Shown here one piece after another: positions 28,618 through 64,000 of a stretch of 64,000 bases of DNA; the stretch's first letter is position 1, and every line of letters starts with the position of its first letter. Source of the DNA: Chloroflexota bacterium. GTDB taxonomy: Bacteria; Chloroflexota; Anaerolineae; Anaerolineales; Villigracilaceae. The notes under the pieces are model-generated. The model saw nothing but the letters and a program-made list of their open reading frames with translations. It made no database searches and was not told the DNA's origin. Where the stretch lies: NCBI GenBank assembly GCA_039961775.1, contig JABRVZ010000003.1, positions 83,272-147,271 on the forward strand, given 5' to 3'. A program made the translations under genes and the position numbers.

Positions 28618-28671
28618 ATTTTGATTCTACCATTTCACCTCTGCGGATTCCCCTGCTGTATAATTGCTTCG

Positions 28672-31293: not shown

Positions 31294-31303
31294 GGAATTT
31301 GCC

Positions 31304-33621: not shown

Positions 33622-33630
33622 CGTAAAGAA

Positions 33631-33659
33631 CAGACCTCCGGCTGGAAGCCGGAGGTCTG
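33631..33659. terminator. Hairpin between convergent genes (probable terminator)
   Basis: CAGACCTCCGGCT / AGCCGGAGGTCTG, 13-bp perfect stem. Confidence 0.7.
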
Positions 33660-33662
33660 GGT

Positions 33663-34604: not shown

Positions 34605-34745
34605 GTTGCACCGGCTTTCAATAGGTGCCGGCAGGCAGTTCGCTGTCCACCGGTTCTGTTAGAAAACGCCCAAAGATTCTCAGAAGGGACCCGACAAAAA
34701 ACACCCTTCCCTTCAAAGCGATGCCTGTCATTCGGAAAGCGTCTG

Positions 34746-36422
34746 TCACTTGATCAAGGCGCGGACTTCTTCGAGAAATTCGTCGTTCAGAAAATCACCC
34801 TTGAGCATCAGGGACTGGATTTGCCCCTGCAGGCGGCTTTTCTCGTCCACAGTCAGTTCCTTGGCGGTGGCGACGATAACGGGGATGTTGGCTGTCTCCG
34901 GCTGACTGCGCAGTATATCCATGACGGTGAAGCCGTCCATTTCGGGCATCATCAAGTCGAGAATGAGAAGATCGGGGCGTTCGCGGTTGACCAGTTCGAT
35001 GGTTTCGCGCCCGTTGACGGCTTCGAAGATTTCAAAATCACCCTGCGACTGCAAAATTCGGCGGATGAGGCGGCGCGCCTCGGCGGTGTCATCTGCCACC
35101 ACCACGCGCGGGAAGCGGTTCGGCGTCACATTGTTGAGGGCGGAGAGCAGCCCCTCTTGCGGGGTCTCCGCTTCTACCTGTTTATGGCGCAGGTCAATAT
35201 CGCGTGTCCAACCTTCGCCGAACAGATATTGCTCGGCGGGCATGGTGTGACCGGTGCAATTCACCACTACTACATCATCCGGCTTGATTATGCCGGCGCG
35301 CACCAGTTTGAAAAGCCCGGCAAAGGCAGTCGCAGAGGCGGGTTCAGCGGAGATGCCCTCCATCTTTGCCAGCACGTGCATCGCGCGAAAGGATTCTTCA
35401 TCCGAAACGCTCTCGAAGACCCCGCCAGTTTCATTGACCTGTTTGCGCAGCATGACGTAGGTGCGCCCAGGGTCGCCGGTTGCCAGCGTTTCGATGCGCG
35501 TTTTGGGCGAGCGCACCGGCTCGGCTTTTTCGAGCCCTTTGCGCCAACTCTCCACCATCGGCGCACAGCCATCCACCTGAATTGGGGCGATGGCAGGGAT
35601 GCGGTCAATCAGCCCCAGCGCCTTCAACTCACGGAAGCCCTTGTACACGCCGAGCGGTCCCAGCCCTCCGCTGATGGATTGCACATACCAGTCGGGCGTG
35701 CGCCATTTCGGACGGTCTTCTGTGGACTCTGGCGGAGCGCCGTTTTGCAGGGTCAACTGTTCGGCAATTTCGAACGCCAGCGTTTTCATTGCCTCCACCG
35801 CTGTGACCGTGCGTGCGCCCATGTCCTGATACAAACCACGCTGGCGGGCAAACTCTGCCGCCATGATTTTCGCCTCATCGTAGGAGCCGGTGATTTTGAC
35901 CACCTGACTGCCATACAGGGCGATCTCGCGCATCTTGACCCCCGGAACGAGGCTGGTGACGAACGCCCAAAGTTTGATCCCCGCCCGAGCCGCATACGCC
36001 GACAGCGAGATAGCGACATTGCCTGTGGAGGCGGCAACCATTTCAGTGATGCCCGCTTCCTTGAGCGCGGCAATCGTCAGCGCCGCCTGCCGGTCCTTGA
36101 AGGAGGAGGTGGGTCCCTGGCGCTCGTCCTTGATGTAGAGATTGTTCAGCCCCAGCATCATTCCCAGATTGACGGCTTTGATGAGCGGCGTGCCGCCCTC
36201 GCCAAGCCGCAGGCTGGGATTGGGGTTGTGAATGGGCAGGAGTTCCTTGTAACGCCACAAATCGAACTCACGGTTTTTCAGTTGTGACGGAAAGGTTTTT
36301 GCCACCTCCGCCATGTCGTATTCGGCTTCGCGCCACTGACTGGAGCAATTGGGGCATTGCATGGAACTGGGCGTGAAGGGAGCGGCATGCCCGCAATCGA
36401 GACAACGAATGACAAATGACAT
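34746..36422 (-). CDS. Threonine-synthase-like PLP enzyme (N-terminal Zn ribbon) fused to a C-terminal receiver domain
   Basis: CLDC...CPNC, LGEGGTPL, SFKDR (PLP Lys), ASTGN, EPASA. C-terminal VVADD...LILDLMMPEMDG...TAK...KG. Confidence 0.88.
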   Translation of the reverse strand: MSFVIRCLDCGHAAPFTPSSMQCPNCSSQWREAEYDMAEVAKTFPSQLKNREFDLWRYKELLPIHNPNPSLRLGEGGTPLIKAVNLGMMLGLNNLYIKDERQGPTSSFKDRQAALTIAALKEAGITEMVAASTGNVAISLSAYAARAGIKLWAFVTSLVPGVKMREIALYGSQVVKITGSYDEAKIMAAEFARQRGLYQDMGARTVTAVEAMKTLAFEIAEQLTLQNGAPPESTEDRPKWRTPDWYVQSISGGLGPLGVYKGFRELKALGLIDRIPAIAPIQVDGCAPMVESWRKGLEKAEPVRSPKTRIETLATGDPGRTYVMLRKQVNETGGVFESVSDEESFRAMHVLAKMEGISAEPASATAFAGLFKLVRAGIIKPDDVVVVNCTGHTMPAEQYLFGEGWTRDIDLRHKQVEAETPQEGLLSALNNVTPNRFPRVVVADDTAEARRLIRRILQSQGDFEIFEAVNGRETIELVNRERPDLLILDLMMPEMDGFTVMDILRSQPETANIPVIVATAKELTVDEKSRLQGQIQSLMLKGDFLNDEFLEEVRALIK

Positions 36423-36497
36423 TTGCTGATTCTTTCTTTTTGCCGCCCCAGAACTATACCAGGCGGCAAACAGTCTTTAGAATATTGTTGGGACGGC

Positions 36498-39400
36498 TTA
36501 ACCGCCAATTCGTTTGAGTGCGTTTTCAATGCTGGCAATCAAATCGTTTTCGGTGAGCGATCCCTTGGCAATGAGCCTTTTGCCGTACTCGGCAAGTTGT
36601 TTGTGCTGTTCGTTGGTGAGCCCGCCGCCGCTGACCACCAGTACCGGTATCTCGCGGAGCGCCGGTTCTTCCATCATTTTTTCGAGAATCATGAAGCCAT
36701 TCATCTCCGGCATGAAGATGTCAAGAATGACGGCGTCTGGCGGATTGGTGTTGAGGATTTCCCAGCCGCGGCGTCCGCCTTCGGCAAGAACTGGTTGATA
36801 TTTGCCGTGTTCGGTCAGGATTTTTTCGATGAGGCGTAAGTCGTTGGGGTCGTCATCAACGACCAGCACGCGGCGGATTTTGTCGTTTTTGTCGAGGCGT
36901 TCCAGCGCATGGACAAGGTCTTCTTCGAGAATGGGTTTGACCAGGTAGTCTGCCGCGCCGAGGGTGAAGCCCTTGTCGGTTTGTTCGACGATGGAACAGA
37001 TGATGATGGGCACGTCTCGCGTGGCAGGATCAGATTTGAGGTCGGTCAGAACCGACCAGCCATCCACGTTGGGCATCATGATGTCGAGGGTCACGGCAAA
37101 GGGGTTGATTTCCTTCACTTGTTCCTTTGCCCTGGCAGGTTCGGTCAGAGCGACGACGTGGTATCCCTGCGGCGTGAGGTAGCGTTCGTAGAGACTGATG
37201 ACCTGCGGGTCGTCGTCAATGGCAAGCACAATTTTTTTGCCCGCCGGAATTTCCCCGGCTGGCTGGCGGAAGAGCGGCATGGTGAACCAGAAGGTGGAGC
37301 CTTTGCCCTCCTCACTTTCGACGCCGATGCGCCCCCCATGGAGTTGAACGAGGTTGGCGCAAATGGAGAGACCCAGTCCCGAGCCGCCCGTCTTGCGGGT
37401 GGCGGAGCCATCCACCTGCGAGAACGCCTTGAATAGTTTTTCCTGACCTTCCGACGATATGCCGGGACCGGTGTCGATCACTTTGATGAGCGCCTCGAAT
37501 TTTCCGTTTGGCGCTTTTTGCACGGAGGTCTCGACGGTGATGAAGCCCTCGTCGGTGAATTTGGCGGCGTTGGAAATCAGGTTGAGCAAAATCTGACGCA
37601 CACGCATCGTGTCGCCGCGGACAGTGGGCATTTCCGGCGGAACCTTTTCGATGAGTTGGATGGGCTTTTCCTTGACAAGTCCTTTCGCCGTGGAGAAGAC
37701 GCTGTGAATCATCTCGGCGAGGTGAACTTCCTCGAAGTTGAGTTCCATCTTGCCGGCTTCGATGCGTGCCAGGTCGAGGATGTCGTTGATGAGTCCGAGC
37801 AGGTGCTGACCCGAATTGTAGATGGCGGTGAGGTCCTGCTGCTGCATGTCGGTGATGGGACCATCTATGCCCTTCAGGATGACGCGCGAGAAGCCGATGA
37901 TGGAGTTCAGCGGGGTGCGCAGTTCGTGGCTCATGTTGGCGAGGAACTGACTCTTGAGTTTGTCCACTTCCTGGAGGTTCTTGATGAGTTCCTGCGATTC
38001 AAGGTACAGGGTGGCGTTGTTGATGGCAACGGCAACCTGGTCTGCCAGAGATTGAAGGATGGAAAGCGCATCGGTGGTGAAGGCGTGCGGCTGGGTAGAT
38101 TGAATGTCAATCACGCCGAGCGCCTTGCCGCTGACCTTGAGCGGAATGGCGACCTCTGATTGCGTGTCGAGCAGGAGCGGGTTGGGCTGGTACAGGCGGT
38201 CGGTGGCGGTGTCGTTGACAATGACGGTGTCACCTTTTTCCGCCGCTTTGCCTACGATGGTTTGCGAGCCGACGGGGACCCTGTATCGTTGGGCTTTCAT
38301 TTTTTCGCCGGCGCCGCCTGTCGCTTCGCGCAGGATGACATGGTAGCCGTCTTCGTCCATCTGATAGATGGCGGCGAAGTAGAAGCCTAGGCGGTCGCTG
38401 ACCAGATTGACGGTCTGTGCGAAGATCGTGTTGAGGTCGAGCGTGGAGGTGACGAGCCGCCCGATTTCGGCGGAAGCGGCAAGGTAGATGTTGCGCCGCT
38501 CCAGGGCTTCTCGGGCTTCCAGGCGTTCCAGCGCGGCGGATGTTTGAGCGGCGATTGCCTCGAGGATTTCTTCGTGCTTTTCTGTGAGGCGTATGGCAGG
38601 GTTATAGGTCTGAACCGCCATGACGCCTCGTACCGCGCCGCGGCTTTTCATCGGCACCCCAAGCCAGTCCACGCTGGGAGCGCCGTCGGAGACAATTTCG
38701 CCGCTGGCTTCGAGGTCGGCAAAGATTTCCGGAGTGACGCGCAGGCGTTTACCGGAACGGATGACATAAGAGGTGAGCCCGCGCCCCAGTTTGCGAGGCG
38801 CCCAGTCGTCGTCGTATTCATCCGCGTGATAAGGGAAGGTAATCTGTTGAATCTCCGGGTCGTAGAGCGCCACGAAGAAGTTTTTGGCTGGCAGAAGTGG
38901 TTGAACGGATTCGTGTACGGTGCGGAGTAATTCTTCTGCTGATTGAGCCGTCAGAGCGCTCTCGGTGATGTGCGTGATGGCGTCCTGGGTGAGTTCGTTG
39001 ATCTTACGGTCGGTGATGTCGTGCGCCACCCAAAAGACCTCGGTTTCGCTCAACTTGGAGACGTTGGCGTCGAACCAGAAGCGGCTGCCTTGAATTTCCA
39101 ACGGATATTCGATGCGCACAATTTCATCGCTATTCAACGCATCGAGGATGGCTTTCATAACCGGTTCGCAAAGGTCCGGCGGCAGGACATCGCGGATGTT
39201 TTTTCCCACCATTTCGTCGGGGGGGCGAACCAGCAGGGAGGGGTTGGTGGGTGCGATGCGGACGTAGGTGCCATCCTTGTCGTACACGATAATGACGTCA
39301 TTCATGGCGGCGAACAACGCCCGCAGTTCTGCCTCGGAGCGCTTGGTCTCCTGGAATAGACGGGCGTTTTCGAGCGCCAGCGTCAGTTGGTCGGTCACCT

Positions 39401-39716
39401 GACGGGCGAGCAGTTGGTCTTCCTCCGTCCAGACACGCTGATTGGTTTCATCAACAACCTGCAGGGTCGCCCAGGTATCGGTGCTCAGTTTGAAATCCAG
39501 CGCCAGGGCGGTTTCCGTGAGGGGTGCCGCTTTGGCGCGGCGAACAATGCCGGGGTGTTTTGCTGCCGGCAGTTCCTTGCCCGATACCGCTGCAGGCGGC
39601 TGGGACGCGCCGGCAGGAGCAACCGCCTGAGGTTCGACGCTCGGTTCTTCGTGCTTGATGTCTTCGAATAGTTTGTCAAGCCGCCTGTCGAGCGGTTTCT
39701 TCTTTGGCATATTCAA
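36498..39716 (-). CDS. Hybrid histidine kinase: basic peptide / half-GAF / PAS / GAF / GAF / HisKA / HATPase / REC / REC
   Basis: ANMSHELRTPLN, NLISNAAKFT, DTGPGI, GGSGLGL. Two receivers (TLDIMMP; ILDIFMP). Start may be at 39710. Confidence 0.93.
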   Translation of the reverse strand: MNMPKKKPLDRRLDKLFEDIKHEEPSVEPQAVAPAGASQPPAAVSGKELPAAKHPGIVRRAKAAPLTETALALDFKLSTDTWATLQVVDETNQRVWTEEDQLLARQVTDQLTLALENARLFQETKRSEAELRALFAAMNDVIIVYDKDGTYVRIAPTNPSLLVRPPDEMVGKNIRDVLPPDLCEPVMKAILDALNSDEIVRIEYPLEIQGSRFWFDANVSKLSETEVFWVAHDITDRKINELTQDAITHITESALTAQSAEELLRTVHESVQPLLPAKNFFVALYDPEIQQITFPYHADEYDDDWAPRKLGRGLTSYVIRSGKRLRVTPEIFADLEASGEIVSDGAPSVDWLGVPMKSRGAVRGVMAVQTYNPAIRLTEKHEEILEAIAAQTSAALERLEAREALERRNIYLAASAEIGRLVTSTLDLNTIFAQTVNLVSDRLGFYFAAIYQMDEDGYHVILREATGGAGEKMKAQRYRVPVGSQTIVGKAAEKGDTVIVNDTATDRLYQPNPLLLDTQSEVAIPLKVSGKALGVIDIQSTQPHAFTTDALSILQSLADQVAVAINNATLYLESQELIKNLQEVDKLKSQFLANMSHELRTPLNSIIGFSRVILKGIDGPITDMQQQDLTAIYNSGQHLLGLINDILDLARIEAGKMELNFEEVHLAEMIHSVFSTAKGLVKEKPIQLIEKVPPEMPTVRGDTMRVRQILLNLISNAAKFTDEGFITVETSVQKAPNGKFEALIKVIDTGPGISSEGQEKLFKAFSQVDGSATRKTGGSGLGLSICANLVQLHGGRIGVESEEGKGSTFWFTMPLFRQPAGEIPAGKKIVLAIDDDPQVISLYERYLTPQGYHVVALTEPARAKEQVKEINPFAVTLDIMMPNVDGWSVLTDLKSDPATRDVPIIICSIVEQTDKGFTLGAADYLVKPILEEDLVHALERLDKNDKIRRVLVVDDDPNDLRLIEKILTEHGKYQPVLAEGGRRGWEILNTNPPDAVILDIFMPEMNGFMILEKMMEEPALREIPVLVVSGGGLTNEQHKQLAEYGKRLIAKGSLTENDLIASIENALKRIGG

Positions 39717-40461
39717 TCAACTCCTGAGCGAGGACACGATATTGCTGCGAGCCGCGGCTGGTGGGTTTGTAGTGAATGATGGGCACGCCGGCGATCGGGC
39801 TTTCCCTGAGTTTGGTGTCAATTTCGATGACGGTGGTAAAAACGCCCTGCCCAAAGGTGGCTTGCAGCTGCTCGAAGATATTGCGGTGTGTGCGGTTGCG
39901 GCGGTCGAGGAGGGTGACCAGAATACGGTAGGCAAGCGCAGGATTGACTTCCTGACGGATGCGGCGGATGGTCCCCATCATGTTGCGCAGCGCGTAGGCG
40001 GAGAAGTATTCTGCCTGGGTGGGGATGATGAGCAGGTTTGCAGCGGCGAGCGCGTTGAGGGTGATCGCTCCGAGGGCGGGCGGGCAGTCGAACAGGATGT
40101 AGTCGTAGGGAAGCGGTTCAGCCGCCAGTGCGTCGCGGAGTGTGGTCAGGTAATGATTTCGCATGGGCAGGAATTGCTCCGCATTTTCGATGCGAAAACT
40201 GGACGGCACCAGGGAAAGGTTACGAATTTCGGTGGCGCGGACGGCGGTTTTAAGGGGCGCGCCTTCAATCAGCACGTTTGCCGAGGTGATGCTTGTCTCG
40301 TCGGTTTCCAAACCAAGGGCGAGCGAAAGGTTCGCCTGCGGGTCGAGGTCCACCAGCAGGACGCGGTAATTCAGTTCGGCAAGCGCCGCGCCCAGCGAAA
40401 GCGTGGAGGTGGTTTTGGCGACGCCTCCCTTTTCGTTCGACATTGCGATTGCGTATGCCAT
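39676..40461 (-). CDS. ParA/Soj-family ATPase (orphan, no adjacent parB)
   Basis: KGGVAKTT deviant Walker A, DLDPQAN, DCPP, LIIPTQAEY. Confidence 0.92.
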   Translation of the reverse strand: MAYAIAMSNEKGGVAKTTSTLSLGAALAELNYRVLLVDLDPQANLSLALGLETDETSITSANVLIEGAPLKTAVRATEIRNLSLVPSSFRIENAEQFLPMRNHYLTTLRDALAAEPLPYDYILFDCPPALGAITLNALAAANLLIIPTQAEYFSAYALRNMMGTIRRIRQEVNPALAYRILVTLLDRRNRTHRNIFEQLQATFGQGVFTTVIEIDTKLRESPIAGVPIIHYKPTSRGSQQYRVLAQELIEYAKEETARQAA

Positions 40462-40462
40462 C

Positions 40463-42976
40463 TTACTTGTCCTTTCCGTCCGAAGCCTTGGGCAGGATTT
40501 CCACACGGGTGGCGCCAAGCGCCTGACGCAGTTCCTGCAGGGCGGTTTCGATCATGGCTTGCGGGTCGTTATGGTTGCGTATCTTGCCGGTGATTTCCGA
40601 GACCAGCCGTTCGCGTTCGGCGCGGCGGGTTGTTTCTTCGAACAGGCGGGCGTTTTCTGCGGAGAGCGCCACGCGTTCCGCCACCGCCTGAATGAGGTCT
40701 TTTTCGTCCTCACCCCATTGGGATGCGGATGCAGATTGGACGACCAGCCTGCCGATGACTTCGCCGCGCAGTTCGATCGGGACGACAATCGAGGTTGTTT
40801 CAGCCTTCTCAGCCTTTTTCTTGTCTGGAAGCGGCATGTCCAACTTGATGGGCTCGGTGAGGGGCACTGCCCCCATGGTATTGTAGCGGTAGCCGAGCAG
40901 TTTTTGGCTGTGCGGCAAACGTTTCCATGCTTCGCGAGTGGACTGGCGCATGAGTGTTTGCAGTTCTTCAAGCGCGCGGTTGGAAGCATCGAACAGACGC
41001 GCATTTTCGATGGCGAGGCTTACCTGTTCGGCGAGCAGACTGAGCGTTTGCACGTCTTCTTCGGTGAAGGCGCCGACTTCCGTGCTTTGCACGTCGAGCG
41101 CGCCGATGACTTTGCCGCCGCTGAAGAGGGGCAGCGCCATTTCGGAGTGGGTGTCGGGGAGGTCGGGGTTGTTGAAGTAGACGGCATCCACCCCGACGTC
41201 GAGGGCGATGCGCGGTTTTCCGCTTCCCGTCACGCTGCCGACGATGCCTTGTTCGCCTACTTTCAGGCGGTGTCGCCTTGCCAGCATTCTCTGACCGCCT
41301 TCGCTGTTAGCCGCGGCAAGTACGGCGTATTCGTTGTTTTCATCGAGCAGGAAGATGCCGACATGGTAAAAGCCGTACTTTTCGCTGATGACCGACGTCA
41401 CGTGCGGGAGGAGTTCCTTGGGGTCGCGGATGGAAGCGATGGATTGGGCGACCTGCGCCATTGCCTCGAATTGTGCCGCGCGGCGGTGAAGTTGGGCGTT
41501 TGCCGCTTCCAGCTCACGTCCGCGTTGTTCGACTTCCCGGGTGCGTTCGGCGACGCGCATTTCGAGCGAGTCGATGGATGTCTTGAGTTCCGCCGCCATG
41601 GCGTTGAGGGTGGAGGCAAGGGTGCCGATTTCGTTTTGCTCGGTGATGGCTGCGCGCGCTTCCAGGTTACCTTTTGCCATTTCTTCGGCGGTACGGGTGA
41701 GCGAAAGCAGAGGGGCTATCAGGCTGTTGCTGAAATTGCGGGTGGCGAGCAGGGTGAGCCCGAAGATGCCCAGAACGACGAAGAGACTGATGCCCAGCGC
41801 ATTGCGGCTTTCGCGTTCGAGTTGTTGGCGGGCTTCCAGCGCTTTGGCGAGCATTTCATTGACCGGTACGATGATTGCCAGGCTGAAGCCCGCGCGTTGT
41901 ACCGGGCGGTAAACGACGAACCTCCTGGTGCCGTTCAGGCTGAGTTCTGTGAAGCCGCTGTTGCCGGCGGTCATTTCGGTGAGTATGGGCGCGAGTTCTC
42001 TGGCGGTGCTTCCCAGGTTGGTGGCAGTGAGTTTGCCTCCCAGCGGTAACATGTTCGGGTTGATGTTCAGATCGGCGTAGCCCGCATTGGGCATGGCAAT
42101 CAGCCGCCCGTCGCGGTCGAGCAGGAATGCGTAGCCGCTCTCTGCCACGCTGATATTACCGACGATTTCCGAGATTTTAGTTAGTTGAATATCCTGCGCA
42201 ACGACGCCAGCCAGTCTGCCTGCCGCATCGTAGACCGGCGCGCTGTTGGTGATGACAATACCGTTGAGCGCGGCGTCCAGATACGGCTCTGACCAGACCG
42301 CCCCTTTGCCAGGATTTGCTTCCGGCGCCGCCGCCGTGTACCAGGGTCTGCCGGTGACGTCGAAATCGGGAGGGACGATGGCGGCAAGGTCTATGTTGGG
42401 GTAATAGAGCGTGTACCCCGAAGAACCGCCAAAGTACACGGCGATGACATCGGGATTGGCTTCAAGGATGGAGGGGGCAATCAAGTCCATGTGGCGGATG
42501 ATGTTCAAATCCGCTTTCATTGAGTCGGAGAGGTCGGCTGCGGCAGGGATAAATACGGAGCCGATTTCTGTGTTGGGGTTATCCCAACTGCCCTTGTCGT
42601 TGCGGGAAAGCGATGTGCCGGCGTCCCAAAATGCGCCGGTTTCGAAAGACTGCCGGTTCAGCAGAAGGTTCTGGTCATATTCTCTCAACGAGAGGATGCC
42701 TGCCTCCAGCGACGCGAAAAAGTTCGATAAAGTTTCTGTCTTTCGGTCGGCTGTAATGGCAAGCAGGGTCTCGGCTTCATTACGTGTGGCGGCGTCGAGA
42801 CGTGAAATCAGGGCGGAGTTGGTCTGCCGCGTGCGGATGAATACGAAGACGCCCATGATGGCAAGCGCCAGAAACACGATGGCAATACTGCCGCGAACCA
42901 GCCTGTTGCGAATGGACGGCTGAGGCGCTGAATAGGATTGCGGAGAACCGCCGGTGGGTTTCACTGCATCTGTCAT
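40463..42976 (-). CDS. TM-dCache-TM-HAMP-GAF receptor with split-GAF tail, no catalytic domain
   Basis: FDVTGRPWY..WSEPY dCache, HAMP EIGTLA, conserved GAF, PIELRGEVIG...ENARL...RERLVSEI tail. ATGA overlap with the upstream gene. Confidence 0.85.
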   Translation of the reverse strand: MTDAVKPTGGSPQSYSAPQPSIRNRLVRGSIAIVFLALAIMGVFVFIRTRQTNSALISRLDAATRNEAETLLAITADRKTETLSNFFASLEAGILSLREYDQNLLLNRQSFETGAFWDAGTSLSRNDKGSWDNPNTEIGSVFIPAAADLSDSMKADLNIIRHMDLIAPSILEANPDVIAVYFGGSSGYTLYYPNIDLAAIVPPDFDVTGRPWYTAAAPEANPGKGAVWSEPYLDAALNGIVITNSAPVYDAAGRLAGVVAQDIQLTKISEIVGNISVAESGYAFLLDRDGRLIAMPNAGYADLNINPNMLPLGGKLTATNLGSTARELAPILTEMTAGNSGFTELSLNGTRRFVVYRPVQRAGFSLAIIVPVNEMLAKALEARQQLERESRNALGISLFVVLGIFGLTLLATRNFSNSLIAPLLSLTRTAEEMAKGNLEARAAITEQNEIGTLASTLNAMAAELKTSIDSLEMRVAERTREVEQRGRELEAANAQLHRRAAQFEAMAQVAQSIASIRDPKELLPHVTSVISEKYGFYHVGIFLLDENNEYAVLAAANSEGGQRMLARRHRLKVGEQGIVGSVTGSGKPRIALDVGVDAVYFNNPDLPDTHSEMALPLFSGGKVIGALDVQSTEVGAFTEEDVQTLSLLAEQVSLAIENARLFDASNRALEELQTLMRQSTREAWKRLPHSQKLLGYRYNTMGAVPLTEPIKLDMPLPDKKKAEKAETTSIVVPIELRGEVIGRLVVQSASASQWGEDEKDLIQAVAERVALSAENARLFEETTRRAERERLVSEITGKIRNHNDPQAMIETALQELRQALGATRVEILPKASDGKDK

Positions 42977-50700: not shown

Positions 50701-50775
50701 CATGCCCGCCAGCAGTGTGCCGACCTGTTTTTGTTTTTCACTCAACATGCTGTCCGTGTCTCGCATTCCGCTCAT
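47767..50775 (-). CDS. Multi-TM + dCache + HAMP + GAF receptor with split-GAF tail
   Basis: N-terminal helices, dCache (VSVSTPVY..GVMTADF; GYAFLVD..G), HAMP DEVGTLA, conserved GAF and tail. Confidence 0.85.
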   Translation of the reverse strand: MSGMRDTDSMLSEKQKQVGTLLAGMLALAGAAFLVFDLITVRLQSGTLDLSDRVMIPFLSLMVLGNLLALALMRRGRHLAGAWLTYALSMVAFPLAATLVIRGAILVAGASVVVFTALFVWRVFPAGSRSRVILLAAATLLLATAIEIWDPAFRIQSQFFAPIVGAVIMMLAAAGSAAYFARRALSGNIRTKIVAGILTTGFLSLLALSIFALNRAAGLVNTFSVSIERLANQLAEEQLINTITNEAGRADSAFNTAVAQVEGVAHQLELLQEQKNTLGNGFYWDAAVRLTRYSDGQYFNSRYSPSSVFVPSTVELTEDVIRELNVTAYLDFSAPFVLENNPQITALYFTDKRGIITHYPNIRLGESLPHNYDGTAQPPFRVATPLFNRDRSARWSFPRQDPAGRGLVVSVSTPVYFKDEFIGVMTADFQLAKIAEQIGAIKVGTSGYAFLVDSDGHIIAMPPQGYELLGLQPEVLGMNEEPKQTIFDGNLPFELRQITLRITAGASGLITTSANGVKYFVAYAPLANRSFSLGLIVPVDELTQPVAATRNEIAAQVQGTVRSAVVILIILLAGALAVSLGLGQLLAAPILSLTQTANQILEGNLAAQADIRTQDEVGTLAQAFNAMTARLRGTLEGLERSVEERTAQLLEANANIERRARQFQSIAHIARTISSNLELESLLKQITVAISREFGFYHVGIFLLDSNGEYAVLSAANSPGGQRMLARGHRLKVGAKGLVGYAAGTGKPRIALDTGADAVFFNNPDLPETRSEIALPLRAGEMIIGVLDVQSTQPNAFGDEDIAILTILADQVSIAIQNARQNEETRQALAESQSLSRQFVRSGWSQFTKREKLLGVRHTGAKASLLYARNSKEAQEILQSAKQLKAGMGGAVLSMPIKLRGEVIGSVDVRAPGNRQWDQDELDIVNAILERAAIAMENARLLAESQKRAAKEHTIGEISAKISAQSDMEELLKAAALELKRALPETEVIVQLQSEALERRAG

Positions 50776-52517: not shown

Positions 52518-52520
52518 GGA

Positions 52521-53906: not shown

Positions 53907-53920
53907 ATTGTCGTTTGCGC

Positions 53921-55804
53921 CTATTCTCTTTCGAGTTCGAGGGTCACTTCTGCGGCGTTGCCAAGTCTGCGTCCAAGTTCTTCGACTGCCGATTGCATAA
54001 TGGCGTCCATTTCGCTGATGGCGCTCACTTTGGCGGCAATTTCGCCGATGACCCGCTCGCGGGAGGCGCGGCGCTGTGCAGAATCCACGAGGCGGGCGTT
54101 TTCGAGGGCAAGGGCGGCGCGTTCGGCGGCGGCTTCGAGCAGGGCGCGTTCGTCGTCCGTCCACTTGCGAGTCATGCTTTTGGGACGCACTTTGATAATT
54201 CCGATTACCTGTCCTTTGAGCCGTACAGGGACGAGCATTTCACCGCTGTCCTTTTCCATGCTCAGGCGTCCGGTTTGCGGCAGGGCGGAGGCTTGAGCCT
54301 GACCGTCCTTTTCTTCGAAGGGAATGGTGCGTTGCCCGTCAAACAGATAGCCGGCGGTCTTTGCATACTGCCTGAAACTGTTCCATTCCTGTTTGACGTA
54401 CCGCGCGAAGGTTTGTTCGGACTCTTTCAGCGCTTCGCGGGCTTCGCTGAACAGGCGGGCATTTTCGATGGCGATGGCAACCTGGTCGGCGAGGGTGGCA
54501 AGAACAGCGACATCCTCTTCGGTAAAGGCGTTCGCTTGTGTGCTTTGAACGTCGAGCACGCCGATGACGCGTCCGCCCACAATGAGGGGAAGCGCCATTT
54601 CGGAGCGGGTGCTGGGGAGGTCGGGATTGTTGAAGAAAACGGCATCCGCTCCCACGTCCAGGGCGATGCGGGGTTCGCCGCGCAGTGCGGTGTAGCCAAC
54701 GATGCTTTTCATGTCCAGGCGGAGTTTGTGCTGGCGTTTGAGCATTCTTTGTCCGCCTTCGCTGTTGGCGGCGTGGAGAACGGCAAATTCCCGCGCTTCG
54801 TCCAGGAGGAAGATGCCGACGTGGTAAAAGCCGAACCGCTGGCTGATCAGTCGCGTGATTTCGGGGAGCAGCAGGCTGGTTTCCTGAAGTGAGGCAATGG
54901 CGCGGGCGACGGCAGAAACTGCCTGCAGCCGGGCGGCACGCGCTTCGGATTTTTGTGTGCGTTCCGCCACCTGCGCTTCGAGGTTGTTGACCAGCTCTGC
55001 AAGTTTTTGCGCCATGCGGTTGACGCTGTTCGCCAGGAGGGTGGCTTCCCTCGAATTTTGGGCTTCATTGACGCGCTCATTCAGGGCGCCTTCAGCAATT
55101 TTTTGGACGGTGTGGGTCATTTCTGCCAGTGGGGTTGTTAATTGTTTGCCAAGCAGGTAACCCAGCAGGGCAATGACTGGCAGAGACGCGAGAAAAACCG
55201 CCAGGCTTATGTAGAGGAATCTACGTTCCTTTTCCAGCACCCGGTTTGCCGTGATGTCCACACCCAGCACGCCGACTTTTTCGCCGTTGGAAGCGTAGAT
55301 TGGTGCGTATGCCGAGAGGAAGGAGCCAAATTCGTCGGTGTAGAAATCGGGTTCGATGAGGGGTTGATTGATGGTGTCGAAGTTGTCCGCAAGGAGGGGA
55401 CCCGGTTCCTCGTAGGGTTGACCGAAATCGGCAATGCCCTCATCACCCGGCAGGTTGGCGTCCACCACGAAGTAGATGCCTTGTTCGTTTTTGCGCATGG
55501 TGTACACGTACACGAGGTCCGGATCGGAGGCGCGGATTTTGAGGTTTTGCGCGTTGATTTTGTTGTAGTACTCGTCGTTTCGCGCCGCTACTTTGACGAG
55601 GGTGTCGCCGTCCTGTTGGAGGGCGGCAACGGCGGTGATGCTGACAAGGCGGTTACGCAATTCCTGCCGCAGTTCGGTTCTAAAGTTATTGTAGAGAAAC
55701 AGAATGATGGCGGCGGAAATAAGCGCGCCGCTGATCGTAAAACTGACGGTCAGCAGGGTTTGGAGAGATGGCTGGCGGAAGAATGGTCTTCTCATAACGT
55801 TCAC
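53921..55804 (-). CDS. TM-single Cache-like-TM-HAMP-GAF receptor with split-GAF tail
   Basis: Sensor is paralogous to 45827-47770 (YVYTMRK, YTDEFG..SAYAP). GTGA overlap; alternative ATG at 55795. Confidence 0.85.
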   Translation of the reverse strand: MNVMRRPFFRQPSLQTLLTVSFTISGALISAAIILFLYNNFRTELRQELRNRLVSITAVAALQQDGDTLVKVAARNDEYYNKINAQNLKIRASDPDLVYVYTMRKNEQGIYFVVDANLPGDEGIADFGQPYEEPGPLLADNFDTINQPLIEPDFYTDEFGSFLSAYAPIYASNGEKVGVLGVDITANRVLEKERRFLYISLAVFLASLPVIALLGYLLGKQLTTPLAEMTHTVQKIAEGALNERVNEAQNSREATLLANSVNRMAQKLAELVNNLEAQVAERTQKSEARAARLQAVSAVARAIASLQETSLLLPEITRLISQRFGFYHVGIFLLDEAREFAVLHAANSEGGQRMLKRQHKLRLDMKSIVGYTALRGEPRIALDVGADAVFFNNPDLPSTRSEMALPLIVGGRVIGVLDVQSTQANAFTEEDVAVLATLADQVAIAIENARLFSEAREALKESEQTFARYVKQEWNSFRQYAKTAGYLFDGQRTIPFEEKDGQAQASALPQTGRLSMEKDSGEMLVPVRLKGQVIGIIKVRPKSMTRKWTDDERALLEAAAERAALALENARLVDSAQRRASRERVIGEIAAKVSAISEMDAIMQSAVEELGRRLGNAAEVTLELERE

Positions 55805-57966
55805 TCTGCCTGTTCCGTAAGTTGGATGCTGACTTCCGCATCGCCCAGCGACCTGCCGATTTCTTCGACGGTTGTTCGCAGGATGGCATCGAACTCGGAT
55901 GCAGAACTGATGGCGCTTGTCACTTGCGAGATTGCCTGTTCACGTTCGGCTTTCAAGCGGGCTTCCTCGAAGAGGCGGGCGCTTTCCAATGCGCTTGCAA
56001 GACGTTCCACTGCCAGCGTAATGGTTTTGATGGTGTTGGGATTGTAGTTTTCCCTGAGTTTCAGGGAGACGACGCCGATGGGCTGACCGCGCAGTTTGAT
56101 GGGAACCGCCACTTTTGCCGGCTGTGAGACGCCTTTTTCGCTTCCAGCCTGGACGATGGGGCTGCCGGCGCGAAGGGCTTCTTCTCCCGCTTCGGGCATT
56201 TCCTGGAGGGGTTGAATGCGCACGTTGTCGAAGCGGTAGCCGGCTTTTTCGAGCAAGCCTGTTTCAACGAGCGCCCTCCATTTTTCGCGGGTGGTTTCGC
56301 CGTAGGCGCGCTGGAGTTCTTTGAGGTTTTCTTCCACCTGCTCGAGCAGGCGCGCGCGTTCGATGGCGATGCCGATCTGGTCGGCGATGATTTGGAGAAT
56401 GGCGGTATCTTCTCCACGCTGGAATGCCTGTGGCTGGTTGCTTTGCAGATCGAGAACGCCGATGGTGCGGTTTGCTACTTTAAGGGGAAGCGCCAGCGCG
56501 GAACGGGTGTCGGGGAGAAGCGGAGGCTGATTGTCTGGAGCAGTGGGGAGGTCCGAGGTGGATGCGAGAGTAGGCTCGCCGGTGGATGCGGTTCGCGCAA
56601 TGAAATCGGCGCCGGTGATGGGTAGTTTGTAGCCTTCAGCGATCCTCTGTTTGCCTGTGGGCGAGGAAGCAGAAACGGGAACGGCAAATTCCCGTTTGTT
56701 GTCAAGCAGATAAATGCCGGCATGGCGCACCTGGAAGCGCGCCGAAAGGGATGTGGCTGTCAGTTGAAGGAGACTCTCCAGGTTGGATGTAGCGGCGATG
56801 TCGCGGGCAATTTGGGAAACGAGGTAGAGTTTGTTGGTCTGGTTTTGGAGTTCCTGCGTGCGCTGGGCGACCTGAATTTCGAGATTTTCGGCGTTGGCTT
56901 GTAATTGTTGGCTGGCGGCGCTTAATTTTTCGATTAGCCGGGTATTGTCTGCTATGATGAATATTTGCCGGGCGATGGTGAGGAAGACGGTCAGGGCGGT
57001 TGCAACGAAAAGCCCGTAGGCGGGGATGCCAGGTTCTTTCCCCGAGGTGGCGGCGTAGAGTGAGACGAGGACGCTGGCGATGAGGGCGGTAATGGAAAGG
57101 ACGGCGCTTTGCCAGACCGTGACAGGCTTTACGGCGGAGGGGATGTTGGTGCGGGTGTCGGTTTGGCGCAGGGCGGAAATGCCAATGAAGTAGTAACTGA
57201 CGCTCCACAGGGCGTCCACAGGGCTGCCTGATGTGTAGGTTTCCTGCAAGACTGCTCCGGCATAGATGATGTCGGCAAGGATGTAGGCAGACATTCCGAG
57301 TGCAAGGATGAAAAGAGCCTGGCGGGCGCCGGGGTGGTTTCTTTGCAGGATGAGGCTGATGATGCTGGCAAGCAGGAGCGCATCCATGCCGGGGTAGGCG
57401 CCTGCAACCCATTTTGCCAGCCAGGTTTCGCCGCCTGCCGCGGCGGTGGGGGCAATGATGAAATACCAGAGAATGCCGGTCACGCTGGTCATGGTGATGA
57501 CCAGGTCGAGGTTGTGCGTGCGTTTCAGGGCAGGGTCTTCTTCCAGGGTAGGGATGGAGACAATGCCGGCGAACGCCAGCGGGTAAAATACGAGATAGAA
57601 AATATCTGGAATGTCGGGAAAGCCAACGCCCTTTGTGAGGTCAATGGCTGTGTAAAGAATGTCGCCGATGACCAGGGAGAACAGACTTAGAGCAAGGAAT
57701 CGCCAGGCGCGGCGCGTGCGCAAGTCGAGGTCGGATTGACGCGCTGTGAGTGAGGCGCTGACGGCGGCGAAAAAGCCGAGCGGCAGGTAACCGAGCCCGG
57801 CGATCAGTTCCTCGTAGGCGGGGTCTGTCCATTTGAAAAGAATCCAGGAGGTAAAGACCAGCAGGTATAACCCTGCCGCTGCTGCCCAGGGGAATTTCCA
57901 TCCCTCGAGCCAGGCGGGAATGCGGCGGGTTGCGGCTGGTTGCGTTGTGTTGGTTTGCGTGTCCAT
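55801..57966 (-). CDS. Multi-TM (MASE-like) sensor + GAF receptor with split-GAF tail
   Basis: About 9 hydrophobic helices (RRAWRFLA, PDIPDIFYL, AYPGMD, YILADIIY), divergent GAF, tail. Confidence 0.83.
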   Translation of the reverse strand: MDTQTNTTQPAATRRIPAWLEGWKFPWAAAAGLYLLVFTSWILFKWTDPAYEELIAGLGYLPLGFFAAVSASLTARQSDLDLRTRRAWRFLALSLFSLVIGDILYTAIDLTKGVGFPDIPDIFYLVFYPLAFAGIVSIPTLEEDPALKRTHNLDLVITMTSVTGILWYFIIAPTAAAGGETWLAKWVAGAYPGMDALLLASIISLILQRNHPGARQALFILALGMSAYILADIIYAGAVLQETYTSGSPVDALWSVSYYFIGISALRQTDTRTNIPSAVKPVTVWQSAVLSITALIASVLVSLYAATSGKEPGIPAYGLFVATALTVFLTIARQIFIIADNTRLIEKLSAASQQLQANAENLEIQVAQRTQELQNQTNKLYLVSQIARDIAATSNLESLLQLTATSLSARFQVRHAGIYLLDNKREFAVPVSASSPTGKQRIAEGYKLPITGADFIARTASTGEPTLASTSDLPTAPDNQPPLLPDTRSALALPLKVANRTIGVLDLQSNQPQAFQRGEDTAILQIIADQIGIAIERARLLEQVEENLKELQRAYGETTREKWRALVETGLLEKAGYRFDNVRIQPLQEMPEAGEEALRAGSPIVQAGSEKGVSQPAKVAVPIKLRGQPIGVVSLKLRENYNPNTIKTITLAVERLASALESARLFEEARLKAEREQAISQVTSAISSASEFDAILRTTVEEIGRSLGDAEVSIQLTEQAE

Positions 57967-57970
57967 GCGG

Positions 57971-59623
57971 TTACCTTCTGGAGCGCCTCTTTTCGGGTGT
58001 TTGGGCGGCTATGTCACTGACGAAAACGGACGCTTCCAGCACATCTGGTATTTGACCCAATTCGCGGGCGGCGGTTTGGAGCAAGGCGTCAATGTCCATC
58101 ACCTGGCTGAAGCGCAGGGCAAGTTCGCTTACGGTTTGTTCCTGTTGGGAGCGCTGGGTGGCTTCTTCGATGAGGCGCATGTTGTCGAGTGCAAGTCCGG
58201 TCTGGTATGCCACCTCCTGAACCATTTCTTTGTCGAACTGGTTCCAGGGGGCGTTGTCTTTGCGGGCGATGGAGATGACGCCGATTTTCTGTCCGCGCAG
58301 GGTGATGGGGATTTTCAGGGCGTTGTCTTCGTTTTCCAAAGTTCCCCCTGCGCGGACGCCAAGCGGAGTGTAGGTGTAAGCCACGCCGCCCTGCCGCGCC
58401 CGCTGTTCCCATGCTTGGCGGGTGCGGGCGGCAGTGAGGGCTTCGATCTGCATGAGCGCTGTCTGGGCTTCTTCGAGCAGGCGCATTTTTTCGATGGCGA
58501 CTGCCGCCTGGCTGGCAAGGGTTTCGAGAACGTCGAGGTCGTCTGTGCTGAATGCCATGGGCTGGCTGGACTGAATGTCGAGGACGCCGATGACGCGGTC
58601 ATGAATCATCATGGGAACGGCGGCTTCGGAGCGGGTTTCGGGGAGGTGGGGGTTGTCGAAGAAAACCGGATCCGTTCCGGTGTCCAGGGCGATGCGGGGT
58701 TTCTTCAGGGCGGCAGCGTATCCGACGATTCCTTCCGTGCCGACTTTGAGAGAATGTCCCTTTTCGATCATTCGTTTGCCGCCTTCGGAGGATGCCGAGA
58801 CGAGGATGACTTCGTCGCCGTTTTCGTTCATGAGGAAGATGCCGGCGTGATAAAAGCCGAATTGCTCGGTGATCAGGTTGACGATGAATTTGAGGATGGA
58901 GTCGAGGTCTTGCAGTTCTGCGGTTTGACGGGCGATATAGGATGCGGCGCGGAGTTGCTCGGTTTTTTGCCGGAGGCCGGCGGTGCGCTCTTCGACGCGT
59001 TTTTCCAGTTCGGCGCGCTCGTGCGTGAGGGCGGCAACTGCTTTTTGAAACCGTGAGGCAACGTCTTTGAATTCGGTTTTTAGCAGGTAGATTGCCCAAA
59101 TGGCGGCAGCAGAAATGAAGAAATAGTCTGCCAGGTAAGAGAGCCACTCCGCCGCGCTGGTATCCGGCGAAACTGGCGCAATGAGTGTCAGGTATCCAAA
59201 GGAATTAAGTGCGCCGACGGCGGCGATGCTGAGGATGTTTATTCCAAACATCCAGCGGTCAGCGCCGCGGTCGAAGAGCAGGGCGGCGAAGATGTTTGCC
59301 GTCAGCAGGTAGGCGGTAGCGCCGGACCAGGGACCAATTTGCAGAAGGACAAAGAGCCCCATCAGGTAGAGGCTTGTAATCAGAACGGCGGCTTTTAGTC
59401 TGTAGGGCAGAGGCGTGAAGGCAAGGAGCAACAGCACCGCATAGACCAGCAGGAAGGAGAATATTTCATTGCGGTCGAGGAGGGGGATGTTGGCGGCGAG
59501 AAGGACCAGCCCCAGTCCGGCAATGACGCGCAGTATGGCAGCGAGAAATGTTGCCCGCCAGCGATCGTACTGGAAGGAAGTTTCATCCGGCTGATTGAAG
59601 GACGGAAGTTCAGGCGTGGTCAT
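57971..59623 (-). CDS. About 5-TM sensor + GAF receptor with split-GAF tail
   Basis: Hydrophobic head, LEKRVEERT, GAF with ALDTGTDPVFFDNPHLP, tail. GAGGA SD before ATG 59623. Confidence 0.85.
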   Translation of the reverse strand: MTTPELPSFNQPDETSFQYDRWRATFLAAILRVIAGLGLVLLAANIPLLDRNEIFSFLLVYAVLLLLAFTPLPYRLKAAVLITSLYLMGLFVLLQIGPWSGATAYLLTANIFAALLFDRGADRWMFGINILSIAAVGALNSFGYLTLIAPVSPDTSAAEWLSYLADYFFISAAAIWAIYLLKTEFKDVASRFQKAVAALTHERAELEKRVEERTAGLRQKTEQLRAASYIARQTAELQDLDSILKFIVNLITEQFGFYHAGIFLMNENGDEVILVSASSEGGKRMIEKGHSLKVGTEGIVGYAAALKKPRIALDTGTDPVFFDNPHLPETRSEAAVPMMIHDRVIGVLDIQSSQPMAFSTDDLDVLETLASQAAVAIEKMRLLEEAQTALMQIEALTAARTRQAWEQRARQGGVAYTYTPLGVRAGGTLENEDNALKIPITLRGQKIGVISIARKDNAPWNQFDKEMVQEVAYQTGLALDNMRLIEEATQRSQQEQTVSELALRFSQVMDIDALLQTAARELGQIPDVLEASVFVSDIAAQTPEKRRSRR

Positions 59624-63673: not shown

Positions 63674-63688
63674 CTTAGCGAGGGAAGA

Positions 63689-64000
63689 TTAGTTGTATTC
63701 CCAAACGGGTTCGCCCGCCAAAATGCGGCGAATCTGGTCGGGGAAACGATCGGGATCGAGCGGTTTGCCAAGAAACCCGTCGAAGCCGGAAGCGCGGGCT
63801 TTTTCCATTTGATCCAGGCTGGCTTCGGCAGTGACCGCGATGATCGGGATGTTCTTCAGTCTTTCCGACGCCCTAATCTTTTTCAGCGCGCCGTACCCAT
63901 CCTCGTAGGGCAGGCGAATGTCCATCAGGATCAAATCGAGGCGTTGGAGCGTATCGGCATATTCCACCACTTCGTAGCCGGAAGTCTTCCATTCACAGTG
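63689..64000 (-). CDS. Single-domain CheY/DivK-like response regulator (5'-truncated by window edge)
   Basis: Frame is open to the window end; LILMDIRLP, IIAVTA, GFDGFLGKP. Confidence 0.9.
   Translation of the reverse strand, partial: HCEWKTSGYEVVEYADTLQRLDLILMDIRLPYEDGYGALKKIRASERLKNIPIIAVTAEASLDQMEKARASGFDGFLGKPLDPDRFPDQIRRILAGEPVWEYN

Follow-up and report, generated by a model that had tools for sequence, protein, structure and literature searches.

Chemosensory arrays, which are assembled from MCP receptors, CheW and the kinase CheA, combine many receptors having varied heads (dCache, HAMP and membrane bundles) and a conserved cytoplasmic end with one kinase, CheY-like single-domain receivers and a ParA-type ATPase. 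In Pseudomonas, RetS, LadS and PA1611 are kinase-like proteins with HisKA and HATPase domains whose genes are scattered in the genome, and they reportedly act on GacS by direct protein contact and not by phosphotransfer. In Rhodobacter sphaeroides, the ParA-like PpfA positions cytoplasmic chemosensory clusters through TlpT, which bears an activating N-terminal segment (PMC4085708). In Streptomyces coelicolor, the GAF accessory protein CvnF8 binds and stimulates the sensorless histidine kinase CvnA8, and the Cvn accessory proteins occur only where the kinase has no sensory domain of its own (PMC13343842).

Here, we describe a locus of an uncultured Anaerolineales bacterium that seems to represent a novel route by which many signals converge on a single kinase. 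Its 31-kb operon architecture is apparently undescribed; the initial annotation knew of no description, and we likewise found none in the searchable literature. The locus lies in the window (the whole stretch of 64,000 nucleotides that was analysed) and extends slightly beyond it. It comprises 17 tightly packed minus-strand genes (~64541 down to 33631) for two CheY-like receivers, 11 paralogous sensors, a ParA of the Soj type, a soluble hybrid histidine kinase, ThrC-REC (a ThrC-like PLP enzyme with a fused receiver) and an EamA transporter, as follows.

33631..33659, minus strand: terminator-like hairpin directly after the EamA stop (13-bp stem, 9 G-C pairs, T-rich tail)
33663..34604, minus strand: EamA/DMT-family transporter, last gene of the unit (Pfam EamA, 97 bits)
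34746..36422, minus strand: ThrC-REC, with N-terminal Cys4 ribbon, threonine-synthase-like PLP core and C-terminal receiver
36498..39710, minus strand: soluble hybrid histidine kinase, likely start ATG 39710, overlapping the ParA 3' end
39303..39509, minus strand: orphan C-terminal GAF quarter at the kinase N-terminus, a beta hairpin and a long helix ending ENARLFQE
39663..39710, minus strand: N-terminal basic peptide of the kinase, MPKKKPLDRRLDKLFE
39676..40461, minus strand: Soj-like ParA ATPase with deviant Walker A KGGVAKTT (Pfam AAA_31, 161 bits; CbiA)
40463..42976, minus strand: R1, dCache_1, HAMP, GAF, mini-GAF, tail; 837 aa
42973..45834, minus strand: R2, multi-TM, weak dCache-like region, HAMP, GAF, mini-GAF, tail; 953 aa
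45827..47770, minus strand: R3, periplasmic head (putative PDC-like), GAF, mini-GAF, tail; 647 aa
47767..50775, minus strand: R4, multi-TM, dCache_1, HAMP, GAF, mini-GAF, tail; 1002 aa
50772..52517, minus strand: R5, helical membrane bundle, signalling helix, GAF, mini-GAF, tail; 581 aa
52521..53906, minus strand: R6, small membrane head, GAF, mini-GAF, tail; 461 aa
53921..55804, minus strand: R7, periplasmic head, HAMP, GAF, mini-GAF, tail; 627 aa
55801..57966, minus strand: R8, large membrane bundle, GAF, mini-GAF, tail; 721 aa
57971..59632, minus strand: R9, MASE11 membrane domain, GAF, mini-GAF, tail; 553 aa
59610..61568, minus strand: R10, membrane head, HAMP, GAF, short mini-GAF, tail; 652 aa
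61565..63673, minus strand: R11, soluble multi-GAF protein with three Pfam GAF stretches and a tail as in R1-R10; 702 aa
63689-64132, minus strand: REC2, single-domain CheY-like receiver (the window ends at 64000)
64125-64541, minus strand: REC1, CheY-like receiver, beyond the window
64626-64698: tRNA-Gly, past REC1

Compared with the chemosensory arrays, the cluster has no MCP signalling domain, CheA, CheW, CheR or CheB, and it employs a HisKA-type hybrid kinase, a truncated-GAF receptor end and a PLP enzyme as output rather than a motor. The parallel with such arrays drawn in the initial annotation holds in logic only. Its statement that CheA and CheW are missing was borne out by Pfam for all genes from 28285 to 64541, and MCPsignal was found in none of the 11 sensors (E<=0.01). 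As with RetS, LadS and PA1611, several sensors would converge on one kinase by the contact proposed below, but the sensors here carry neither HisKA nor HATPase and are all encoded in one operon. CvnF8 resembles them as an output-less GAF protein that serves as input for a kinase of the same operon. This likeness is a functional analogy only: here up to ~20 membrane-bound sensors accompany each kinase, and the truncated-GAF tail, the ParA and the downstream pathway are different. No roadblock or GTPase genes were detected in the cluster by Pfam.

ORF junctions and Pfam content agreed with the annotation of 11 consecutive minus-strand sensor genes (40463-63673), which overlap by 4-23 nt or are separated by gaps of 3-15 nt. 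The hairpin after EamA, the sole strong terminator-like hairpin within the scanned region 33300-40600, is likely the end of the transcription unit, and on sequence grounds it fits, together with the gene packing, a single transcript. An operon of ~29 kb had been claimed; the single packed unit stands, but it measures ~31 kb and 17 genes, because it reaches through the overlooked EamA exporter to the hairpin at 33631-33659 and includes REC1 beyond the window. When the DNA was read upstream of 64000, as had been suggested, the rest of REC2, then REC1 and tRNA-Gly were found, and the flank credited with one CheY-like regulator in fact holds two receiver genes. ParA, the hybrid kinase and the PLP-REC enzyme on the other flank were all recovered by their Pfam domains.

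The sensors combine varied input heads with a common cytoplasmic module. R1 (88.7 bits) and R4 (62.3 bits) passed the Pfam threshold for dCache_1, HAMP was found in R1, R2, R4, R7 and R10, and helical membrane bundles form the heads of R5, R6 and R8; R11 is soluble, and the other ten are membrane proteins. The heads originally proposed were retained for these dCache, bundle and soluble proteins. In contrast, the dCache_1 match of R2 is sub-threshold (~19 bits vs a cut-off of 45), and a Cache-like head is unproven for R3 and R7, since their PDC/Cache hints are only faint (E 0.05 and 0.18). In each sensor, Pfam recognised a single full-length GAF and, C-terminal to it, part of another. No HisKA, HATPase, GGDEF, EAL, cyclase, PP2C or MCPsignal domain was detected in the 11 proteins with Pfam (E<=0.01), and an NCBIfam search of the sensors gave nothing further, in line with the earlier view that they have no output domain. 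The first GAF (GAF1), which carries an NNPDLPxTRSE motif, is 31-61% identical across the eleven paralogues and ~60% within R1-R7, with heads that are unrelated.

A tail of ~55 residues is common to the C-terminal ends of all 11 sensors. It corresponds to the first third of a GAF domain and ends right after strand 1: it aligns to columns 2-56 of 178 in the sensors' GAF1 profile (hhalign; 89% probability, E 2e-6), and so covers the pre-helix, helix 1 and strand 1. The tail is an incomplete GAF fold; in every sensor, GAF1 and the mini-GAF are whole. That the tails might prove to be a known catalytic domain had been considered; judged by the hhalign comparison, the tail is a partial, noncatalytic GAF and not such a domain. 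The tail HMM matches just the 11 sensor ORFs across the 4.07-Mb genome, and a junction model also matches GAF-GAF junctions of giant multi-GAF proteins. In the AF2 model of R5 (pLDDT 85), a GAF and a five-stranded mini-GAF are followed by two helices, and the terminal strand of the tail is unstructured and unpaired in the monomer, yet its residues are nearly invariant. Using this model, Foldseek returned only tandem-GAF regulatory modules, with PDE2A, PDE5 and CyaB2 as the best matches and phytochrome GAF-PHY also among them.

The kinase is composed, in order, of the basic peptide, a linker, the orphan half-GAF, PAS, GAF, GAF, HisKA (75.7 bits, SHELRTPLN H-box), HATPase_c (102 bits) and two REC domains. 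REC domains also occur in ThrC-REC, REC1 and REC2, the acidic pocket and phospho-Asp are present, and no HPt domain was detected in the cluster by Pfam. The orphan piece matches Pfam GAF positions 100-133 of 133 (E 0.012). AF2 modelled the kinase N-terminus as a short helix, a disordered linker and a confident hairpin and helix (strands 68-74 and 80-86, helix 96-136, pLDDT 75-94), which make up an incomplete GAF. The peptide MPKKKPLDRRLDKLFE resembles the N-terminus of the genome's own ParB, MPKRTGLGKGLDALI; it is kept in orthologous kinases, where a hypervariable linker follows, and it heads whichever gene comes after ParA. The peptide is a plausible candidate for the partner of ParA. The true start of ParA is ~40461 and not 40518. 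Among solved structures, it is closest to a ParA family protein (8ray) and to Thermus thermophilus Soj (1wcv), and a paralogous chromosomal soj lies on contig C43. Like ParABS and Soj-Spo0J systems, the cluster combines a Soj paralogue bearing a deviant Walker A with a downstream candidate partner that starts with a ParB-like basic peptide; it differs in having no ParB, ParB HTH domain or parS, and in its presumed cargo, the kinase.

Threonine synthases (Aquifex 2ZSJ and Thermus 1UIM) share with ThrC-REC the PLP fold type II core and the SFKDR lysine motif. ThrC-REC (Pfam PALP 214 bits, Response_reg 68 bits) has a fused C-terminal receiver and falls under every NCBIfam ThrC cut-off (250.8 vs 303 for NF006050 and 148.7 vs 167.1 for TIGR00260), and it is 30-38% identical to bacterial threonine synthases. 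The ThrC NSxNPxR stretch, which we take to bind the substrate phosphate, is replaced by D-M-G-A-R-T-V-T-A. All 8 orthologues and paralogues compared share the SFKDRQ PLP lysine motif and the receiver Asp without variation. Two ordinary thrC-like genes are located elsewhere in the genome. The adjacent EamA protein contains two EamA repeats (two Pfam stretches).

Co-conservation of the gene set, which the initial annotation had left to be checked, proved strong across an order. The order REC, REC, n tailed sensors, ParA, kinase, ThrC-REC, EamA was found in 80 species-level Anaerolineales loci and recurs in five other families of Anaerolineales. Of 41 related genomes, 38 have tail arrays; members of the genus each carry 7-20 copies, and ThrC-REC orthologues adjoin the arrays. 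Nearly all of the 80 species loci for which enough flank was available have EamA as the next gene after ThrC-REC, as do 5 of 7 systems from other genomes; the remaining two are second systems and lack it. Of 60 informative loci, 55 have all three of ParA, the N-terminal peptide and the orphan half-GAF. Two loci without ParA (L069 and L082) have no tailed sensors and a sensor fused to the kinase, which, set against the other loci, parallels the rule that Cvn accessory proteins accompany sensorless kinases. In some relatives (G033b and G027b), tailed sensors are present together with a kinase that has no orphan half-GAF, and ParA is absent; hairpin complementation is thus not a universal contact. 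Fused receptor-type kinases (GAF, mini-GAF, GAF) without the orphan half-GAF were found alongside tailed sensors in G027 and G033.

Taken together, the locus is probably one conserved Anaerolineales signalling unit, a two-component system in which many sensors serve one kinase. From the domain content, tail homology, conservation and co-occurrence described above, we infer the protein contacts, the phosphotransfer routes and the reaction catalysed that are proposed here. The heads would act on a transmission module that all sensors share (signalling helix, GAF, mini-GAF and tail), and since the sensors have no enzymatic output, they most likely bind and modulate the single soluble hybrid histidine kinase. 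Docking would most likely occur between the sensor tail (first helices and GAF strand 1) and the orphan hairpin and last helix of the kinase, and in relatives with a fused-sensor kinase, the tail may pair with the corresponding complete GAF instead. The kinase would in turn phosphorylate both CheY-like proteins as well as the receiver of ThrC-REC, which may switch the making or breakdown of an amino-acid-like compound that the EamA transporter would carry across the membrane. The Soj-like ParA may distribute or position the kinase along the cell through the ParB-like peptide. In its most specific form, this proposal is tentative: sensor and kinase could be the halves of one split GAF, with the sensor helix and strand 1 beside the kinase hairpin and last helix in an intermolecular GAF-like core, the kinase could be the cargo of ParA by means of a ParB-mimicking peptide, and the output could be direct phospho-control of an enzyme that makes a small molecule, together with its exporter. 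If the split GAF is true, up to ~20 receptors would compete for or share one kinase, and receptor-kinase coupling would follow a principle distinct from MCP-CheW-CheA. Against this explanation, ten of the eleven sensors are in the membrane, whereas a Soj-like ParA is expected on the nucleoid. The conservation of GAF1 despite unrelated heads could also mean a shared ligand and not pure signal transmission.

The sensors may reach the kinase otherwise, by forming mixed dimers or oligomers with it or with each other through the GAF and signalling-helix interface, the tail being a dimerisation or stability element only. This possibility, which we regard as unlikely, is favoured by the fused kinases of G027 and G033 that coexist with tailed sensors and by the Foldseek matches, as the tandem GAFs of PDE2A, PDE5 and CyaB2 and phytochrome GAF-PHY dimerise in parallel through helices. 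However, the kinase of the genus has no sensor-type GAF1 or mini-GAF, just the orphan hairpin and helix (55 of 60 loci), and a conserved terminal strand that is left unpaired in the monomer model also speaks against it. Somewhat less probable again is that no signal passes from the sensors to the kinase, and that the sensors are only co-transcribed with the two-component genes, either as GAF binders of a common small molecule, possibly the product of the ThrC-like enzyme, or as regulators of ParA, the transporter or the enzyme. The unusual conservation of GAF1 and its motif and the adjacency of enzyme and exporter would suit such a role, but tailed sensors are absent exactly where the kinase has its own fused sensor, and systems without ParA still have tails. 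Moreover, none of the 62 tail-terminated proteins among the top 150 library representatives contains a kinase core, and tail-like junctions inside fused kinases continue into a full GAF. This exclusivity and the fused-sensor loci both fit the split of one ancestral sensor-kinase.

Since the sensors resemble sensor kinases cut inside a GAF domain, the eleven genes might also be read as decaying remnants which lost their catalytic ends and have no present function. This reading is close to refuted: all 11 frames are intact, translationally coupled and terminated at the same point, the tail residues are nearly invariant, and the R1 orthologue pair has a dN/dS of ~0.17 (with dS near saturation). 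Besides the tail arrays in 38 of 41 related genomes, full-length orthologues are found in >100 protein clusters (57-83% identity for R5).

A conserved convergent two-component operon, absent from the initial annotation, adjoins the unit.

Head-to-tail packing on the minus strand is seen throughout the cluster, which belongs to a genome of 4.07 Mb in 169 contigs (window: C3:83272-147271) and comprises the following features, together with a convergent operon past its 3' end (window positions).

64125-64541, minus strand: REC1, CheY-like receiver, just beyond the window edge
63689-64132, minus strand: REC2, CheY-like receiver
63673 down to 40463, minus strand: R11 to R1, eleven paralogous sensors
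39676-40461, minus strand: ParA, Soj-like ATPase
36498-39710, minus strand: soluble hybrid histidine kinase
34746-36422, minus strand: ThrC-REC, threonine-synthase-like PLP enzyme with C-terminal receiver
33663-34604, minus strand: EamA transporter
28285-33621, plus strand: three-gene operon encoding a multi-GAF histidine kinase (1002 aa), a REC-GAF-histidine kinase (632 aa) and an OmpR-type regulator (244 aa)

From the receiver and sensor genes through ParA to the kinase, neighbouring genes either overlap by 4-35 nt or are separated by 1-15 nt, and wider gaps occur downstream, ahead of ThrC-REC (75 nt) and EamA (141 nt). In the scanned 33300-40600 stretch, a single strong terminator-like hairpin was found at 33631-33659, directly 3' of the EamA stop. 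Reading upstream of base 64000, as the initial annotation had proposed, showed that REC2 runs to 64132 and is preceded by REC1 and then, ~85 nt farther upstream and outside the window, by a tRNA-Gly(CCC) gene (64626-64698, minus strand), which has a terminator of its own and a promoter that matches TTGACA-17-TATAAT perfectly. Because the junctions are tight, a terminator-like hairpin follows EamA and the tRNA gene is a separate unit, the cluster is predicted to be one transcription unit of ~31 kb with 17 genes. The operon had initially been described as ~29 kb long with a CheY-like regulator on one side; the unit now extends to ~31 kb with two receiver genes and EamA at its end. With the terminated tRNA unit so close, the promoter of the cluster would lie within the short gap, or transcription reads through. 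The convergent operon may serve the sensor-kinase system as a transcriptional branch; about 52-54 of the 80 species loci retain it at this place on the opposite strand.

All eleven sensors can be aligned over their last ~370 residues, and this common module consists, in order, of a signalling helix, GAF1, a connecting helix, a reduced GAF (mini-GAF) and a ~55-residue tail; Pfam accordingly gave one full GAF and then a second, partial GAF match in each. Varied heads on this module, as claimed earlier, were confirmed: R1 and R4 carry dCache_1 and HAMP, and R11 is soluble with three GAF stretches; the Cache heads proposed for R3 and R7 were dropped as sub-threshold hints. By Pfam, R2 also carries a sub-threshold dCache with HAMP, R7 and R10 carry HAMP and R9 MASE11, and no named head domain was found in R3, R5, R6 and R8. 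Pfam detected no kinase, cyclase, GGDEF, EAL, PP2C or MCP signalling domain in R1-R11 and NCBIfam nothing further, in agreement with the view that all 11 receptors are without output domains. GAF1 identity is ~60% among R1-R7 and 31-61% over all eleven. Recent gene conversion among the paralogues was rejected, since GAF-core DNA identity is 74-79% over 300-430 nt and exact matches (~20-30 nt) are confined to the NNPDLP codons of GAF1 (41126-58702); the paralogues are old, and each has its own orthologues.

The tail, with the consensus RRAxKExxIxEIsAKIxxxxdxdxILqTaVeELgRaLgxxEVxIQL, is, by profile comparison, the start of a further GAF that is cut just past the first strand, because it aligns to the 178-column GAF1 profile of the sensors themselves at columns 2-56 (hhalign, 89% probability, E 2e-6), a region made up of helix 1, strand 1 and the helix before them. 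In the whole genome, a tail-only HMM matched the eleven sensor ORFs only, and a model of the mini-GAF end plus tail also matched every GAF-GAF junction in two giant proteins of the same genome, encoded at C14:31843-37242 (minus strand, ~1800 residues) and C92:38389-45816 (minus strand, 2476 residues), with 8 and 12 or so tandem GAF repeats, respectively. The AF2 model of R5 (61 sequences, mean pLDDT 85) places a helical membrane bundle, a long helix, GAF1, another long helix, a five-stranded mini-GAF and helices 501-546 and 550-565 in order, with the terminal strand modelled as unstructured; its residues E560, L561, L565, G566, E569 and I572 are nevertheless invariant or nearly so over orthologues and paralogues.

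Two other explanations of the tail were considered. A hidden catalytic or otherwise known output domain, which had been named as the finding that would overturn the proposal, found no match in Pfam or NCBIfam, although isolated tails are too short for Pfam; AF2 and Foldseek gave GAF modules only, with no catalytic fold among the matches; R5 best matched regulatory tandem-GAF segments (PDE2A, PDE5, CyaB2) and phytochrome GAF-PHY. Truncation by assembly error or pseudogene formation was ruled out by the same end point in 11/11 genes and in 38/41 genomes and by purifying selection, for which R1 and its counterpart in locus L010 (70% identity), the single clear orthologue pair compared, gave dN/dS ~0.17 with dS near saturation.

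The kinase has the Pfam order PAS-GAF-GAF-HisKA-HATPase-REC-REC, and across orthologues its N-terminus has three parts: first a basic peptide, conserved as M-[PS]-K-K-x(1-4)-K-R-L-[DNE]-x-L-F; then a linker, rich in Pro and Ala and hypervariable, of 40-160 residues; and last a conserved stretch ending ...WATLQV.DE....W..DEQLLVKQVTDQLSLALENARLFQE. AF2 gave a short helix (7-14), disorder from ~15 to 60, a hairpin (68-74, 80-86) and a helix (96-136) ahead of PAS, with pLDDT 75-94 for the hairpin and long helix. This hairpin-helix piece matches positions 100-133 of 133 in Pfam GAF (E 0.012), and thus, by the two alignments, the sensors stop after the opening elements of a GAF, and the kinase starts with the closing ones.

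The basic peptide follows ParA. ParA has a KGGVAKTT motif and Soj as its nearest structures, and a canonical soj-parB pair lies elsewhere in the genome, on contig C43. ParA ATPases are known to be activated by the N-terminal peptide of a ParB-type partner. The N-terminus is MPKRTGLGKGLDALIPAG in the C43 ParB and MPKKKPLDRRLDKLFEDI in the window kinase. In other families, a peptide of the same kind heads whichever gene comes after ParA, namely the kinase in systems G039, G025 and G033a and a receptor-like protein in G027a (MSNNDNSYQKRLESLFSG, then a Pro-rich linker), and it is absent from the ParA-less systems G033b, G027b and L082. Of the 60 species loci that reach far enough upstream, 55 combine ParA, peptide and N-terminal half-GAF, the others being two split ORFs, one variant peptide and two loci without ParA, L069 and L082, which also have neither half-GAF nor tailed sensors. 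L069 retains a peptide-like RRLEAIF with no ParA within 10 kb, and its kinase N-terminus is similar to the soluble R11. These two minimal systems consist of REC, REC, a sensor-fused kinase, ThrC-REC and EamA (L069:6143-9958; L082:6560-10657).

When the co-occurrence of tail, ParA, kinase and PLP-REC was checked as suggested initially, the set was found to recur across the order. The tail model matched 38/41 related genomes (within the genus, 7-20 matches per genome, grouped on one contig), and full-length ThrC-REC orthologues adjoin the tail arrays. Same-genus loci have the order REC1, REC2, n tailed sensors, ParA, kinase, ThrC-REC, EamA, which is also found with variations in five other families, with 2 to about 14 or more sensors per locus. 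Scanning GTDB species representatives gave 581 ThrC-REC relatives, of which the best 80 (68-92% identity) were analysed; nearly all come from MAGs of Anaerolineales or Chloroflexota, Ca. Villigracilis among them, and nearly all loci with enough flank have the kinase directly upstream of ThrC-REC, EamA directly downstream, and ParA with 1-4 tails within 10 kb. Full-length R5 orthologues (57-83% identity, >100 clusters, from Anaerolineales or Chloroflexota MAGs) carry no label beyond 'GAF domain-containing protein'. When 1.84 billion library representatives were scanned, the tail model matched a large family of 6,859 clusters at E<=1e-10, a count that takes in ordinary GAF-GAF junctions; of the 150 best matches, 62 have the tail as their end, <=25 residues from the C-terminus, none of them (0/62) with a kinase core, and 20 have a kinase core with the motif internal.

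Taken from gene content and domain order, the cluster is probably a two-component system in which many sensors feed one kinase. Here, kinase-less and mostly membrane-bound receptors would dock on the single soluble kinase via the truncated domain, ParA, of the DNA-partition and nucleoid type, would handle the kinase, and the response would be direct phospho-switching of the PLP enzyme and export of its product, not transcription or motility. Docking of the sensor tail onto the kinase as a split GAF is a more tentative proposal than the many-sensors-to-one-kinase reading, because relatives with fused kinases have tails and no orphan hairpin. In the fused receptor-type kinase of G027a, the tail-equivalent segment runs on into a complete third GAF whose end corresponds to the orphan piece of the window kinase, and an ancestral sensor-kinase split inside a GAF would therefore fit.

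Every part belongs to a known domain type, and the design follows two-component logic; a categorically new coupling principle is possible. CvnF8-CvnA8 is an experimentally supported precedent for a GAF accessory protein that drives a kinase without a sensor of its own (PMC13343842), and PpfA-TlpT is one for a ParA-type ATPase with signalling proteins (PMC4085708). In agreement with the initial annotation, the searched literature yielded no description of the architecture, whether for the cluster, the ThrC-receiver fusion and the tail or for Anaerolineae GAF and ParA systems and MASE11. If the reading is true, a whole order of abundant, mostly uncultured, filamentous bacteria of sludge, sediment and groundwater has a new signalling design in which dozens of kinase-less receptors feed one soluble kinase, protein-fragment complementation becomes a natural wiring principle with a testable case, and ParA-type positioning of signalling proteins gains a second example besides chemoreceptor clusters. 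It would also point to an amino-acid-like metabolite, possibly acting between cells.

ThrC-REC is a PALP and REC fusion that falls below every ThrC equivalog cut-off (Pfam, NCBIfam) and retains the Cys4 ribbon, the PLP lysine motif and all receiver residues. The NSVNPYR stretch of Aquifex ThrC, which we take to hold the phosphate of phosphohomoserine, is replaced by D-M-G-A-R-T-V-T-A, and the source genome has two further ordinary thrC-like genes. EamA/DMT family members in E. coli export threonine, homoserine, O-acetylserine or cysteine. The most economical reading would be that phosphorylation gates the making, or the removal, of an amino-acid-like compound and that this is coupled to its transport.

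The set of sensors changes far more rapidly than does the output enzyme. In a comparison with window 40463-45834, L010 and L011 share 92% identity in ThrC-REC, yet the ParA-adjacent sensor is only 70% identical in L010 and has a different head in L011. Several relatives have a second ThrC-REC paralogue (46-49% identity) that is absent from the source genome, at the following positions.

G016:C1:1738952-1740553
G002:C49:10190-11794
G010:C206:10846-12447
L006:2806-4485
L007:16126-17814

This paralogue often adjoins an ordinary thrC; a small tailed-sensor set and a kinase of its own accompany it in G027 and G033. Two contigs with the Anaerolineales-type cluster (L040 and L058, with 74% identity in ThrC-REC) have been placed, probably by binning error, in MAGs that bear the names Blastopirellula marina and Lewinellaceae.
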